From Eledone cirrhosa (Eukaryota), in the NCBI GenBank assembly GCA_964016885.1, contig OZ024743.1:300638001-300702000 (forward strand): a DNA stretch of 64,000 bases, read 5' to 3'. The notes beneath the pieces are model-generated. The model was not told the origin of the DNA and did not search any database. It was given only the letters and a program-made list of their open reading frames with translations. Shown here piece after piece: positions 8,619 to 39,142 of the stretch. Each line of letters starts with the position of its first letter. Positions within the stretch are counted from its first letter, which is position 1. The position numbers and the translations under genes were made by a program.

Positions 8619-11600
8619 ATTAATAAGAGGAATTCCAACTTTGTCTGATTTACTCGTTTTATTTACAATCCTTTAAAATATATATAATATGGTATTATAA
8701 TGAAATAGTATGATAGAATATTAAATTCTAAGTGTTAATTTCATGCTTTCGCAATCTTCAGGTTCATGATATGTGGTGACAGTCGAGTTTGCAATTTTCA
8801 ACTGTAATGAGATGGGTAAATTTACTACCTTTTATACATTTTATACAGAGAAAAGTGGCTCCAGAATGCAAAGCCCGGTAAACAGTATTTCGACCAATCA
8901 GAGTGTAGTTTCACTGAATTACTACAGCTTATTGGTTTAAGCGTCACGGCTGGTTGAGCATGCTAACGTCCAATAGTCATACCCAACGTATCAATTGTTT
9001 TGCTTTTTGAAATTATGAAAATAGCATTTTCTATTAATCATCACCATCAACATTACTTTTATTATTATTATTATTGTTGTTGTTGTTGTTGTAAGTGGTC
9101 GTGGTCATAGTGGTAGTAGAAGTAATACCCCTAGGCGTTATTATTGTTCATTTAGCTTGGGTTTGAATTTATCAATAAAATTCTTTTCTTTGATTTTTCT
9201 CTTGATTTCACTTGGGCTGTGTAATTTGTAGAATGGGAATATTATAAATATTCCCTGACCACATGTTGCCAGGTGGCCGCTTAGGGGTATCTGACGGACA
9301 TTTGGGTCTCTGATTTGTTGACGGTGTACCCGTGCACGTTCCGATAGTGCATTTCCAGTTTGACCGACATATAGTTCTTCACAATTCGGGCATTTAATGC
9401 AGTAAATTAGATTTCTGCTTTTGCAGTTCATATTTGCATTTGGGAATATTTTTCCAGTTTTTGTTTTCATATATTGACCGGCGTGTATGGATTGACATGT
9501 GCCGCATCGATTATCATTGCATTTAGATACAGTGAATGATTGGTCTTTGTTGTTAAGGTCAAACTTTGCTTATGTTAGCAATTGCTTCAACTTTTTTGGC
9601 TGTCTTTTACTAAGAGTCAAAGATCGATCTGTGATTAAGCCTTTTAATTCATTACTTTGAGCAATGATCGGTAGGTTTGCTTTGGCAGTGTTGAATATAT
9701 TCTGGTGACATGGGTTGTGTGTCATTATAAATGGTATGACCAGTTCTTGGTTTCTTCTTCCTTGGGTTGTTCTAAGTTGTTGTATAGGTATTTTTATAGC
9801 CCGCTGTATGCCATTTTCTATAAGTGGTGATGGGTATTTTTGTTTGAGCAAAAATTCTCTTAGTTCTGTTAGGCGTTTGTGCCTGGTATTCGTATCTTCT
9901 ACAATGGTACAAATTCTTCTGGCTAGGCAGTATGGGATGTTGCGTTTTGTATGAGGTGGATGGCACGACTTAAAATTCAGATATTGATGGGTGTCTGTGT
10001 GTTTATAATATATATCCGTGGTAATGGTGGTGTCGTTTTTGATTATCATTATATCTAGGAATGGTAATTTGGTCCTACTCATCTCTTTTGTGAATTGGAG
10101 AGATGGGTGTAGGTTATTCAGGAGGATATTGAACTCATCCAGAGTATCTAGAGATTCTGTCCAGATGATGAAACAGTCGTCAAGGTATCTCTTCCAAGAT
10201 TTTTCAATGTACTTTCTAAAGTCAGTACTATATTTTTCCTCTATTTCTTGGTAGAGTTGTTGTTCTAAGTATCCCATTACAGAGTTCGCGTAAACGGGAG
10301 CAAACTTCGTTCCCATCGCTGTGCCTCTAATTTGGATGTAATTCTTTCCATTGAAGAAGAAAGTGTTGTTTTCCAGAATAAGTTTAACTGCGTCTAATAT
10401 AAATGGCGCTGTGAATCCAATGGGAATCACTTCTCTATGTTTTTCCACCCAGTATTTAACCGCCTTTATTCCTAAATCATGCGTAATGTTGGTGTAAAGG
10501 CTTACCACATCAAAACTGAGTAGAAGTGAATTCGTTTCCGTGGTTTGTGGAAGATGGGACAGGAAGTCGATATCATCCCGGATGAAACTGGGTATGTGAA
10601 TACATAGTGGTTTCAAAATAATGTCAACAAAATTGCTTAGACGGTGAGTGGGGCATGTTGGACCAGCTATAATAGGTCTAAGTTTTAAGTCTTTTGGGTG
10701 TAATAATTTAATGTACTCACTGTTTTGTTCTCTTACTGCCAGTTGTATTTCTTTTGACTTGTGAACTTTCGGTAGGCCATACAGTTTTCTGGGTTTCGGC
10801 TCAAAATTGGTGATGTAGTCTCTTTCCTTATCAGTAAATGAGTTGTGGTATTTTGAAGCCAGGTTGTTGATCTTCTTCATGATGTTGTGGTCTATATTTG
10901 ACGGTATTTCATGATAGAATGTTGTGTCTTTCAGTTGTTCCTCAACCAAATCCTTGTAGTATTCAGTATCCATTATAACAACTGCAGCCCCTTTATCTGC
11001 TTGTTTAATTATTATTGTTTTATCATTTTGTATACGTTTAAGTGCAGACATTTCTGATTTGTTAATGTTTGGCCTAACATTAGTATTATGTCTAAGAGGA
11101 AATTTAGACAGGATGTCAATGTATTGGTCGAGATAAATATTTCTTCATTTTGGCGGAGTGAAATTTGATTTATTCTTTACTAGTGATTCATCACTCTCAT
11201 TATTTTTATCAGCGAAGAATTCTACAAGACGTAATTTTCGACAGAATTCTTGGGTATCCTCCTTCAGTTCTTGGTGGTTGACTGTTGGAGTCGGTGTGAA
11301 TTTCAGTCCTTTTGACAGAATTTGCATTTCATCATTGTCAAGATCTCTTTTAGATAAATTAATTATTTTAGGATCTACGTGTACAGCTGTTTTGGGTATG
11401 TTTCCTCCTGGAGTTTTTCTTTTTCCGGTTTTTGTTGTCGTGACGATAAAAAATGAATTTTTCTCTGTTCAGGATTTATATTCCTGTTGGTGTTCGCTTG
11501 ATGAACTTTTGGTCGTGATATTATATTTGGTTTCGTTATGTATTTTGTCCTATTTTTGGTATTCTGTATATTATTTTTCTTCCTGTTAGCATTATTTTTA

Positions 11601-11956
11601 ACAATCTGGGAAAATGACCTAGGTTTGCTTTCAGGTTTAGATCGTTTTTTCGTCCAGTTTCTTGTGGGCAATCTCTGTTGAGATCTTGAGTGTGATCTGG
11701 TTATTCTACGTTTTGTTTCCTGGTAGTCTCTGTTGAGATCTTGAGAATGATCTCCTGGTTTTACTACTTCTCATGGTCTGGTCAAATGAATACCTATCGT
11801 GTTTGTGCTTTTTGTTCATGTTTTGTGCGATAGGGTGTTTTTGTAGAAAAAGCGAAGAGTTATTAGCGTAGTTCTTCGTTGATTCAAGGTACGGTGAGTG
11901 TTTGTGTTGGTACGTGTTCTGGCGTATGTTGTGTTGATGAGATTGTCCACATTTTA
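8619..11956 (-). mobile_element. Penelope-like element (RT plus C-terminal GIY-YIG, Neptune-like), left copy
   Basis: INLS..L...E..ILSKGLKF, YGLPKVHK, RPII, FDVVSLYTNI, GTAMG, RYLDD, PFLD, CNDNRCGTC linker, IYCIKCPNC..YVGQT..RARVH..GH. Confidence 0.93.
9141..11453 (-). pseudogene. PLE RT-GIY-YIG ORF with two in-frame nonsense codons
   Basis: ORFs 11145..11327, 9570..11051 and 9141..9470 share one frame; TGA at 11145 is GGA in the right copy and TAA at 9570 is AAA in the right copy. Confidence 0.9.
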
Positions 11957-12162
11957 AACTGGACGAAAAAACGATCTAAACCTGAAAGCAAACCTAGGTC
12001 ATTTTCCCAGATTGTTAAAAATAATGCTAACAGGAAGAAAAATAATATACAGAATACCAAAAATAGGACAAAATACATAACGAAACCAAATATAATATCA
12101 CGACCAAAAGTTCATCAAGCGAACACCAACAGGAATATAAAACCTGAACAGAGAAAAATTCA

Positions 12163-37729: not shown

Positions 37730-38030
37730 TTCCTTCCTCTCTCTCTCTCTCTCTCTCTCTCTCTCTCTCTCTCTCTCTCTCTCTCTCTCTCTCTCTCTCT
37801 CTCTCTCTCTCTCTCTCCCTCTATCTCTCTCTCTCTCTCTCTCTCTCTCTCTCTCTCTCTCTCTCTCTCTCTCTCTCTCCTCTCTCGTTCTCTCTCTCTC
37901 CCTCCCTCCCTCTCTCTCTCTCTCGATCAACGTGCTCTCTTTCTCCCTCTCTCTAGATCAACGATCTCTCTCTCTCTCTCTCTCTATCTCTATCTCTCTC
38001 TCTCTCTATCTATCTCCTCTCTCTCCCTCT
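37730..38030. repeat. (CT)n microsatellite upstream of the second CR1-group LINE
   Basis: Long CT dinucleotide run. Confidence 0.9.
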
Positions 38031-38193
38031 GACCTCCCCCCCACTCTTCCCGCTATCTCTCTCGCTCCCCTCTTCTGTTTCTCTTTCTTTTTCTCTCGCT
38101 GGAGTTATATCTCTATCTCCCTCCCTCACTCTGTCCCTCTCTAACCTCTACCCTACACTTCCCACTGTCTCTCTTTCTCCCCTCCACAGCGAA

Positions 38194-39142
38194 ATGGACT
38201 GCATGCAGGAAAAACGTGAAATCAGGAGTCAGCGAAACTGGTCGAAGATGGAACTAGCGGTTTTGATCAAGGGGTGGACTATGGCTGATAGTTCTCCACC
38301 AAGCAAAAAAGATGGCGGAGAACCTGAAGAGCCATGGGTTTCTGAGGACCCCGGTACAGATAGAGAGAAAGAGAAAAGAAATTGAGAAGGCGTATGTCCT
38401 CATAGTGCTTCATATGGCGATGCTAAGCCGTGTCCTCAGGGAGGAGAAAACCGAAGGGAGGGATGAGGAGAAGGAGAGGGAAAAGGAAGAGGAAAAAGAA
38501 AAAGAAAAGGAGGAGAGCACAAGCACGGACCTGAAAGAAAATGATATACCCTCCGCTACAGGCAGGGAGGGCAGGCCGGGCAACCAACAAGCTAAGGGCA
38601 AAGGTGAAAAGCGAAATCACCTTCCGAAGGAGAACCAAGCGCAGCGGGAAAAGTGGACAACTGTTCAAAGAAAGAACAGAAAGCACCGAGACACTGGGAG
38701 CAAAAGACCCCAAGTAATGTGCAAGTCTTTCAAGAACGGGACATGCTGGCATGGAGAGACAGGGATGGGATGCAGATTCGCCCACCCTAGGTCTCAAACG
38801 AACTATGTCCATCATACTCGCGCAACATGCCGTAGCCTAAGCCGAAATAAGCCGCTCCAGAAGTATGCTGATGTCGCGCGTGCTGAACCAACAAGGAGAA
38901 GGCACGCACATGCCGAGGAGATACAGGTGGCAGCAGCAGATCAGAAACATTTTTTAGTGATGGCAGAGAAGATTGTGGGACAGCTGACCTGGCTGCATCG
39001 TCTCCAGAGCCAGGGTCATCCACACCAGCACTCGAGACCACCGCAGTTAAGGGACCCAGAGTGGCCGCCGCTGACACCAGACCAGGTGTCATACCGACAG
39101 CCATTACTGGCACCCCAAAAGTCACACCAGTGCTGCTGCTGA
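38194..39142 (+). pseudogene. LINE ORF1 with a trihelix (Myb/SANT-like) N-terminus and one CCCH finger; frameshift near 38310
   Basis: WSKMELAVLIKGW / MAENLKSHGFLRTPVQIERKRKEIEKAY; CKSFKNGTCWHGETGMGCRFAH. Confidence 0.65.

Follow-up and report, generated by a model that had tools for sequence, protein, structure and literature searches.

A conserved T_TTT_TTA heptamer at the ORF junctions of CR1-like LINEs and a Penelope-like element of Eledone cirrhosa: candidate programmed -1 frameshifting

Retroelements and ORF junctions in the window

The 64,000-nucleotide stretch of Eledone cirrhosa DNA analysed here (the window) holds two LINEs and two copies of a Penelope-like element (PLE), with the following features.

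8616..11957, minus strand: Neptune-type PLE, copy 1; ORF1 5'-truncated, RT and GIY-YIG frames broken
9144..11468, minus: PLE RT-CxxC-GIY-YIG frame, interrupted in this copy by a stop at 11147 and by breaks around 9570
11375..11770, minus: 3' remnant of PLE ORF1 (full ORF1 about 449 aa in other copies)
11447..11453, minus: PLE T_TTT_TTA heptamer, 5 codons past the -1-frame stop 11471-11469
11939..15067, plus: second PLE copy, in inverted orientation; it matches copy 1 at 98% identity and has lost one base soon after the heptamer
12163..12169, plus: T_TTT_TTA heptamer of PLE copy 2, the same site as in copy 1
22669..26680, minus: LINE-A, CR1-like, of a very young family; 5'-truncated, with (TA)n on its flanks
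22755..25892, minus: LINE-A ORF2 (APE and RT), 1045 open codons; first ATG at 25451, within the APE domain
25763..26680, minus: LINE-A ORF1 remnant with two CCCH-like fingers, extending 36 codons beyond the heptamer
25868..25874, minus: LINE-A T_TTT_TTA heptamer, 6 codons past the -1-frame stop 25895-25893
37938..42165, plus: LINE-B, of the same clade as LINE-A, near full length; in this copy ORF2 contains stops and ORF1 a frameshift
38194..39142, plus: LINE-B ORF1 with a CCCH-like finger, extending 63 codons beyond the heptamer
38887..42092, plus: LINE-B ORF2 frame (APE and RT), whose first ATG (39172) lies past the first APE motif
38950..38956, plus: LINE-B T_TTT_TTA heptamer, in the -1 overlap

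The LINEs have an ORF2 with an N-terminal APE and an RT, lack LTRs, and show 5'-truncated copies and a simple-repeat tail. The PLE combines an RT, a CxxC linker, a C-terminal GIY-YIG and inverted copies, in line with the definition of Neptune/Nematis (PMC8557442), which lists inverted or tandem copies bearing pseudo-LTRs. Pfam recovered APE and RT in LINE-A and LINE-B, and RT and GIY-YIG in the PLE. Only LINE-A retains an intact ORF2 in the window, with stops or frameshifts in LINE-B and both PLE copies; in intact copies elsewhere the PLE RT-CxxC-GIY-YIG frame runs for 775 codons from stop to stop.

We confirmed TTTTTTA at 11453-11447 (minus), 25874-25868 (minus) and 38950-38956 (plus), where ORF1 is read as xxT TTT TTA (Phe-Leu) and RT is encoded in the -1 frame. 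This frame is closed upstream by stops at 11471 (TGA, PLE), 25895 (TAA, LINE-A) and 38884 (TGA, LINE-B), and ORF1 ends at 11377-11375, 25765-25763 and 39140-39142, respectively. Coordinates, phase, -1 frame and stops all agree with a sequence-only reading that had placed T_TTT_TTA at three ORF junctions. That reading had also claimed that the RT frame has no ATG before its first conserved motif, and this holds at all three sites: the first ATG lies 42 codons 3' of the heptamer in the PLE, 141 in LINE-A and 74 in LINE-B, past the first conserved motif in each, and the two LINE trans-frame peptides it had proposed were correctly derived. It had not mentioned the fourth T_TTT_TTA, at 12163-12169 (plus), which likewise sits in a -1 ORF1/ORF2 overlap without an upstream ATG. 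TTTTTTA occurs 48 times in the 128 kb of both window strands, and the chance of one in-frame occurrence inside the overlap is about 0.012 for the PLE, 0.016 for LINE-A and 0.031 for LINE-B. An Rfam search of window positions 8000-43000 returned no matches.

Conservation within families and across a LINE clade

Conservation among family copies, which had been suggested as a check on the sequence-only reading, is seen in all three families, with the heptamer, the -1 overlap and the lack of an upstream ATG kept in 30 of 30 top copies of LINE-A, of LINE-B and of the PLE. Family-wide copies (30 per family, together with exact LINE junctions) thus reject copy-specific decay as the source of the junctions. 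When copies were picked by their downstream protein only, the heptamer was present in 23 of 23 covered LINE-A copies (30 picked, 7 without coverage) and in 38 of 40 PLE copies. Exact junctions with the heptamer number 591 in LINE-A, against a single one with another base at position 6, and 227 in LINE-B, against 29. The damaged site in these 29 of at least 256 LINE-B copies (about 10%), where position 6 is C in 23 and 14 carry a further change, exceeds what the 1-6% copy divergence suggests and counts against a frameshift reading. The position-6 change is spread over several subfamily backgrounds whose remaining copies retain T6A, and an older LINE-B master without the heptamer was rejected, as at least 9 of 16 older alleles occur in 26 of 39 randomly taken T6A copies. 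In most other LINE-B copies an overlapping A_AAT_TTT lies one codon 5' of the heptamer, and the stop at 38884 is private to the copy in the window, the frame opening 26 codons upstream in the other 29.

The endonucleases of LINE-A and LINE-B share 33% identity, and sequence comparison places both elements in one CR1-like clade with a CCCH-finger ORF1 (SH-aLRT 99 in a quick tree of loci picked by APE similarity alone). The tree was built from APE only, leaving out loci with fewer than 150 profile positions (such as L145, L150 and L227). From its RT motifs we take the clade to be CR1-like, with no Repbase name assigned. An identity with Proto2 was dropped in view of this apparent resemblance, PMC10294476 being uninformative. 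Twenty members with upstream DNA were testable, 18 of them from other samples, while L129, with no upstream DNA, was dropped. Median APE identity among the clade loci is 0.35, and T_TTT_TTA is found in 16 of the 20, T_TTT_TTG in one, G_GAT_TTT in two and no site in one, TTTTTTG and GGATTTT having been counted as sites only after they were seen. The locus without a site, L135, has an ATG 53 codons upstream; L202 has one 5 codons past its site, and six further loci (L128, L131, L132, L137, L138 and L142) have an ATG within the linker. Given the same site in clade members from many samples, the LINE site is inherited rather than host-specific, and the earlier proposal that a LINE and a PLE arrived at it independently in the same host is not supported in that form. 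The PLE site is very likely separate in origin from the LINE site, judging from its unrelated RT class and ORF1.

Pfam, run on 14 ORF1s, yielded nothing for the clade beyond hints of CCCH and Myb below threshold. In this genome an L1/Tx1-like family carries an ATG just ahead of APE, so the missing ATG is not a genome-wide trait. Searches of this genome for divergent families yielded mostly L1/Tx1-like and other families with PF03372, and with divergent protein queries the same LINE-A and PLE families again. LINE-A relatives sought in viral contigs gave one irrelevant match only, and an ESM Atlas search returned only generic endonuclease clusters. Divergent PLE DNA was not found in viral contigs, and contaminant contigs in 5 and 380 prokaryote genomes provided seven usable PLE loci, most of them one long ORF or cut, with no clear two-ORF -1 junction. 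Moreover, 52 of 120 PLE-homologous gene calls begin with M, whatever start codon lies behind it, no more than 40 residues before the first motif-like match, which counts against frameshifting in the PLE.

Codon choice, open frames and alternative explanations

In the LINE clade, nucleotide-level conservation goes beyond protein need in 19 of 20 members (16 exact). Phe-Leu is written T TTT TTA in 16 of 17 cases at the junction, compared with 0 of 58 pairs in the clade ORF2s, and of the 21 TTTTTTA occurrences across 62 kb of clade loci, 16 sit at the junction. In L202 the peptide reads Asp-Phe-His and G_GAT_TTT is retained, from which it follows that the slippery character outlives the loss of Phe-Leu; GGA is tolerated as a P-site triplet in slippage (PMC3542737). 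The heptamer lies 0-26 codons past the last -1-frame stop in the 19 loci with a site. In the 60 codons 3' of it no -1 stop occurs in any of the 19, compared with 106 stops in 1096 codons upstream. When synonymous codons were randomised with the ORF1 amino acids fixed, the open -1 frame gave p values of 0.001-0.42 per locus and a summed log10 of -26 over the 19 loci, which are not independent; for the window's own families alone the test was not significant (0.27, 0.12 and 0.57).

These features bear on a rival account, in which ORF2 translation begins near the ORF1 stop, by reinitiation after termination or at a non-AUG codon, as in SART1 or L1, and the heptamer persists because a helix of ORF1 has to start with Phe-Leu. 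Reinitiation is documented for SART1 (PMC10275272), in 11 of 19 loci no more than 4 codons separate the ORF1 stop from the APE start, an ATG stands at or near the first APE strand in L130, L131, L132, L137 and L142, and a similar helix-like motif continues ORF1 after Phe-Leu. We nevertheless consider this account unlikely, since it leaves unexplained the codon choice, the T that precedes Phe, the replacement by G_GAT_TTT and a -1 frame that stays open over 55-214 codons, all the way to the heptamer, and since the stop at +4 is probably a consequence of the Leu-Asn codons in the APE motif. In LINE-A and LINE-B no ORF2-frame ATG occurs at the ORF1 stop, where a SART1-type coupling (UAAUG-type stop-start) would place one.

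A splicing account, in which TTTTTTAG serves as a 3' splice acceptor and spliced RNA links an upstream ATG exon to ORF2, gains from the G directly after 15 of the 16 TTTTTTA sites, giving AG, and from the commonest LINE-B variant, TTTTTCAG. A ctenophore gene model (P0138) also fuses an ORF1-like N-terminus to the ORF2 linker, possibly through an intron predicted here, as judged from the protein alone. HIV-1, however, also keeps a G-starting codon after U UUU UUA (PMC4373837). L138, L142, L122, L202 and the PLE lack an AG at the site, and the first three have their nearest AGs in another phase. None of the 16 T-runs contains a C and the sequence upstream of most is purine-rich. None of the 30 copies in which position 6 is not T is a spliced retro-copy, compared with 818 junctions that are exact and unspliced, and the scattered 5' truncations include none ending at AG (0 of 11). 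We therefore regard splicing as very unlikely.

Least likely of all, and of very small probability, is that the T-run is a site of polymerase slippage where a single T, inserted by RNA polymerase or by the RT of the element, brings some RNAs or copies into frame. The LINE-B site is mutation-prone, and a database protein (P0174) joins CCCH fingers to APE-RT at Ser-Phe-Phe-Arg, as one extra T would, though it is known from protein alone and may reflect an assembly error. Six T is short for polymerase slippage, and G_GAT_TTT has no long run; the site fits the X_XXY_YYZ phase of ribosomal slippage, and among 90 copies read no in-frame fused copy was found.

A frameshifting model and its relatives

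Programmed -1 frameshifting is the best, and a probable, reading of the conserved T_TTT_TTA junctions, since a conserved -1 overlap with T_TTT_TTA and no usable ORF2 ATG makes -1 slippage by ribosomes likely. For the LINEs, comparative sequence renders ORF1-ORF2 fusion by this route well supported, as the sequence-only reading had suggested; for the PLE, where conservation is seen inside the family only, it is plausible. A minority of ribosomes would slip back one base at T_TTT_TTA, presumably with tRNA-Phe and tRNA-Leu in tandem, to produce a gag-pol-like fusion. Its predicted order is the N-terminal part of ORF1 with the CCCH fingers, a low-complexity linker of 55-214 codons read in the -1 frame, APE and RT, amounting to some 1,390 aa for LINE-A. 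Most ribosomes would stay in frame and make a complete ORF1p with a predicted helix and a Q/P-rich tail, which would set a high ratio of ORF1p to RT.

A 3' stem-loop may act as a stimulator in some families only. In 7 of 19 clade loci the 60 nt 3' of the site form a more stable fold than shuffled sequence (z < -1.65), and the mean z after clade sites is -1.21, compared with +0.10, -0.14, -0.56 and +0.11 in control windows. No significant fold follows the site in LINE-A (z -0.34), LINE-B (-0.07) or the PLE (+0.81 and +0.91), and a pseudoknot scan of the window families, whose scoring was too crude to be relied on, found none.

Fusion by -1 slippage is a strategy typical of retroviruses, not of animal LINEs. 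HIV-1 gag-pol has the same U_UUU_UUA, usually followed by G, a structural ORF fused to a -1-frame RT ORF and an ORF1 that continues past the site (PMC4373837), whereas the elements here are non-LTR elements and a PLE without protease, known from sequence, and the three window families have no significant stem-loop 5-9 nt downstream. For the Dictyostelium elements TRE5-A and TRE3-A, which are also APE-type non-LTR elements, a -1 frameshift is stated for ORF2 (PMC5911963). They differ in being amoebozoan and tRNA-gene targeted with a zinc finger after the RT, and the passage on them names no slippery site (PMC5911963); the present elements share a conserved site throughout a CR1-like animal clade that has a CCCH-finger ORF1. 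A PLE frameshift between ORF1 and RT is already published: in two-ORF PLEs (Athena and others, Craig et al. 2021) a frameshift with a pseudoknot can part the two, according to the Fig. 1 legend of PMC8557442. The window PLE shares its CxxC linker and C-terminal GIY-YIG with Neptune/Nematis, and neither the fold comparison nor the crude scan showed a pseudoknot or hairpin in it.

It has long been asked how ORF2p is produced from a two-gene LINE RNA, and the answers so far come mainly from L1 and SART1, in which reinitiation or unconventional initiation yields a separate ORF2p (PMC5009743, PMC10275272). The elements here resemble these in their bicistronic RNA with ORF1 upstream of APE-RT, but in the 19 clade loci with a site the two ORFs share 43-209 codons, and the predicted product is a fusion. 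The CR1/L2 elements of Metcalfe and Casane (2014) are alike in their apparently CR1-like RT and APE motifs and their diverse ORF1s; searching that paper for the words 'CCCH', 'frameshift' and 'overlap' gave no match. No report of such frameshifting in animal LINEs was found in the literature searched, which excluded Repbase reports and subscription papers.

If the frameshifting model is true, young, high-copy animal LINEs would produce their RT fused to ORF1, in a low and fixed proportion, and the RT would be tethered to the RNP by its own fingers, which may offer a simple route to cis preference. We lean slightly towards a broader view, in which gag-pol logic is a common, overlooked ORF2 route in invertebrate CR1/L2-like LINEs: one clade would use T_TTT_TTA or G_GAT_TTT, other lineages A_AAA_AAC or T_TTT_TTA with a hairpin, and another would read through a single in-frame TGA-C stop, such that ORF2p is born fused to ORF1p and recoding has arisen several times in LINEs and PLEs. 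L222 was left out of the readthrough count, its stop being a mutated Gly inside APE. The junction offers a seven-base testable handle together with the intact LINE-A ORF2, and a survey of recoding signals across LINE libraries is indicated. An ORF2 without an upstream ATG, made by fusion, would also account for about half of database ORF2 gene calls starting inside the endonuclease, as 44 of 89 related calls begin inside the APE domain.

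The heptamer junction in the window's three retroelement families

Within a host genome of 3.0 Gb, the window carries two CR1-like LINEs and a Neptune-type Penelope-like element (PLE) that share the slippery heptamer T_TTT_TTA in the ORF1/ORF2 overlap:

8616-15067, both strands: Penelope-like inverted pair, with RT, CxxC linker and C-terminal GIY-YIG
22669-26680, minus strand: LINE-A, with an intact ORF2 of 1045 codons
37938-42165, plus strand: LINE-B, a decayed copy

The coordinates that the sequence-only reading had assigned to the heptamers, stops and ORFs were all confirmed on re-check. 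In each element ORF1 reads xxT TTT TTA, the RT-coding frame is the -1 frame, and, as had also been claimed, no ATG precedes the first conserved motif, the first RT-frame ATG lying 42 (PLE), 141 (LINE-A) and 74 (LINE-B) codons past the heptamer. The second PLE copy has an identical site at 12163, and the chance of an in-frame TTTTTTA is about 1-3% per overlap. The full ORF1s span about 391 aa (LINE-A), 320 aa (LINE-B) and 449 aa (PLE). Both LINE ORF1s contain CCCH-like fingers, scoring below Pfam thresholds, and open with a short Myb/SANT-like stretch (L006:539-790; L038:930-1110), for which the Pfam E of 0.0026 in LINE-A is below cut-off and the LINE-B resemblance is by eye.

All three families are young and numerous, with 1064, 680 and 530 candidates at first look, and the heptamer junction is their normal state. 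The heptamer, the -1 overlap and the lack of an upstream ATG were found in 30/30 top copies per family, picked by likeness to the junction. To counter this junction-based choice, a second set was picked by downstream protein; the heptamer was kept in all 23 LINE-A copies covered (7/30 were not covered) and in 38/40 PLE copies. Exact-pattern counts gave 591 heptamer junctions against a single copy with another base at position 6 in LINE-A, and 227 against 29 in LINE-B.

Of the 29 damaged LINE-B heptamers (L320-L348; window site 38950-38956), 23 have C at position 6, a T-to-C change affecting about 10% of LINE-B copies; many of these variants are also changed at position 2, and they occur on several subfamily backgrounds. 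Our first impression, that the variants form an older subfamily, was rejected: 26 of 39 randomly taken copies with an intact TTTTTTA share the same older alleles. Compared with a LINE-B master lacking the site, a hotspot of mutation within the A5T6 run is the likelier explanation, though the variants could conceivably be a small trans-mobilised branch. An overlapping A_AAT_TTT occurs in 22/30 top copies versus 8/29 variant copies.

A clade-wide signal in animal LINEs

An alignment of ten APE domains (the endonuclease at the ORF2 N-terminus) served as query for relatives, and loci were gathered blind to the junction: the best 80 of 502 metagenome loci and 30 contaminant loci in prokaryote assemblies. 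In a quick maximum-likelihood tree, LINE-A and LINE-B fall in one clade of 35 of the 115 APE rows (SH-aLRT 99), with a median APE identity of 0.35, values above 0.6 in four pairs, and 0.33 between LINE-A and LINE-B. A named match from the ctenophore Mnemiopsis suggests a deep animal range. Upstream DNA was available for twenty clade loci, of which 18 are foreign and the other two are a LINE-A copy and a LINE-B copy; their junctions comprise 16 T_TTT_TTA, one T_TTT_TTG, two G_GAT_TTT and one without a site (L135); T_TTT_TTG and G_GAT_TTT were taken as sites post hoc, once observed.

The feature is broader than the sequence-only reading saw: a signal of the -1 frameshift type that runs by inheritance through a whole clade of animal LINEs. 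The proposal of that reading that a LINE and a PLE arrived at the signal independently in one host is not supported, because the LINE signal is inherited across the clade and the PLE, with its matching site, belongs to a class in which frameshifts have already been noted: passages of PMC8557442 and its preprint describe PLE ORF1 as sometimes split off by a frameshift with a pseudoknot. The loci searched yielded no divergent two-ORF PLE relative with DNA.

A helix-like stretch continues ORF1 beyond Phe-Leu, and therefore amino acids alone might explain the conservation. Codon choice, the -1 stop pattern and synonymous randomisation agree in saying otherwise, and point to conservation acting on nucleotides rather than on Phe-Leu alone. 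The junction Phe-Leu is written T TTT TTA in 16/17 cases, versus 0/58 for Phe-Leu pairs inside ORF2 of these elements. Across 62 kb of clade loci TTTTTTA occurs 21 times, and 16 of these occurrences mark the junction. The heptamer lies 0-26 codons past the last -1-frame stop, and the next 60 codons are free of such stops in 19/19 loci, versus 106 stops in 1096 upstream codons. When synonymous codons were randomised with the ORF1 amino acids held fixed, p for the open -1 frame ranged from 0.001 to 0.42 per locus (sum log10 -26, over loci that are not independent), with 0.27, 0.12 and 0.57 for LINE-A, LINE-B and PLE alone. L202 has lost the Leu and retained G_GAT_TTT; GGA is a tolerated P-site triplet according to PMC3542737. 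Gene calls of related ORF2s begin inside APE in 44/89 cases. One database protein (P0174) has CCCH fingers fused in frame to APE-RT exactly at the junction place; known from protein alone, this fusion could reflect either one inserted base or a fault in the assembly.

Frameshifting and its alternatives

The junction probably serves programmed -1 frameshifting at the heptamer. The layout of the junction and its conservation are observed; slippage, its rate and the fusion protein we infer as follows: most ribosomes would not slip and would complete ORF1p, whereas a minority would slip and traverse a low-complexity linker of 55-214 codons between heptamer and APE, giving an ORF1-APE-RT fusion with a predicted size of about 1,390 aa in LINE-A. 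The PLE counterpart would be an ORF1-RT-EN fusion of about 1,190 aa. Reinitiation or a non-AUG start, which would draw on the ORF1 stop lying at most four codons from the APE start in 11/19 loci and on a linker ATG in eight clade loci (L128, L131, L132, L135, L137, L138, L142 and L202), is an unlikely source of ORF2. Splicing seems somewhat less likely again: a G follows 15/16 TTTTTTA sites, so that the site reads as an AG acceptor, but AG is missing from five junction types, 0/30 variant copies are spliced, 0/11 5'-truncations end at AG, and the G is paralleled in HIV-1 by a conserved GGG codon at the equivalent place (PMC4373837). Polymerase slippage at the T-run is very improbable.

In a fold test of 60-base windows starting 3 nt past the site, 7/19 clade loci folded better than shuffles (mean z -1.21), versus mean z of +0.10, -0.14, -0.56 and +0.11 in four control windows; no significant downstream fold was found in the window's own LINE-A, LINE-B or PLE. 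A stimulator is supported in only part of the clade, because just these seven loci fold and the window's three families do not. By eye, downstream hairpin stems are kept through base changes in the related pairs L133/L136 and L130/L142.

The proposed mechanism is a known one and directly testable here. PMC5911963 describes TRE5-A and TRE3-A as requiring a -1 frameshift, PMC5009743 treats HeT-A, TART and L1, and PMC10275272, PMC4120745, PMC10294476, PMC3846280 and PMC5408684 provide further background. In the literature searched, chiefly open-access papers, no description of a conserved -1 signal in CR1-like LINEs of animals turned up.

Other LINE lineages and neighbouring sequence

Sixty-two loci outside the clade were examined as leads, counted without a null model. 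ORF1 overlaps in -1 phase in 21/62, and 17 of those 21 have an in-phase slippery heptamer, A_AAA_AAC in 11. Another LINE lineage (L174, L175, L183, L185, L198, L200) has A_AAA_AAC in phase where ORF1 and ORF2 share a long -1 overlap, frequently with a GC-rich stem behind the heptamer, and L174 has a PHD-finger ORF1; the same junction occurs in L153, L180, L191, L194 and L203. L159 (1447-1490) and L197, copies of an esterase-ORF1 LINE, combine T_TTT_TTA with the end of ORF1 three codons later and, about 10 nt downstream, a strong hairpin (z -2.9 and -3.6), which is a textbook -1 arrangement. In ten loci ORF1 and ORF2 share a frame and are separated by a single stop; seven of these stops are TGA-C (L161, L172, L199, L205, L215, L216, L219; TGA CTA in three), a leaky context according to Table 5 of PMC3542737, making these LINEs candidates for stop-codon readthrough. 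In one L1/Tx1-like family of the host, an ordinary ATG precedes APE. Another LINE family in this genome (L103, L106, L115) carries G_GGA_AAC and then a stop in the ORF1 frame, and two of its three decayed copies lack an ATG ahead of APE.

Because most LINE-A 5' ends abut (TA)n, microsatellite targeting by LINE-A is suggested; a second LINE-A 3' fragment of 320 bases (27242-27565) lies in (TA)n a short way upstream of the main copy. In contig run X1, whose kind is unrecorded, depth over the LINE-A junction region (25803-26097) is 50-100-fold above the rest of LINE-A, an excess absent from another contig run. Elsewhere in the window, one transposase-like element is present twice, at 29898-33092 and 52546-55732; the copies are decayed, share 87% identity and are oppositely oriented. 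By eye, 35364-35840 (plus strand) is an RT fragment from another LINE, and 59075-59836 (minus strand) is what remains of a member of a second Penelope-like family with GIY-YIG.
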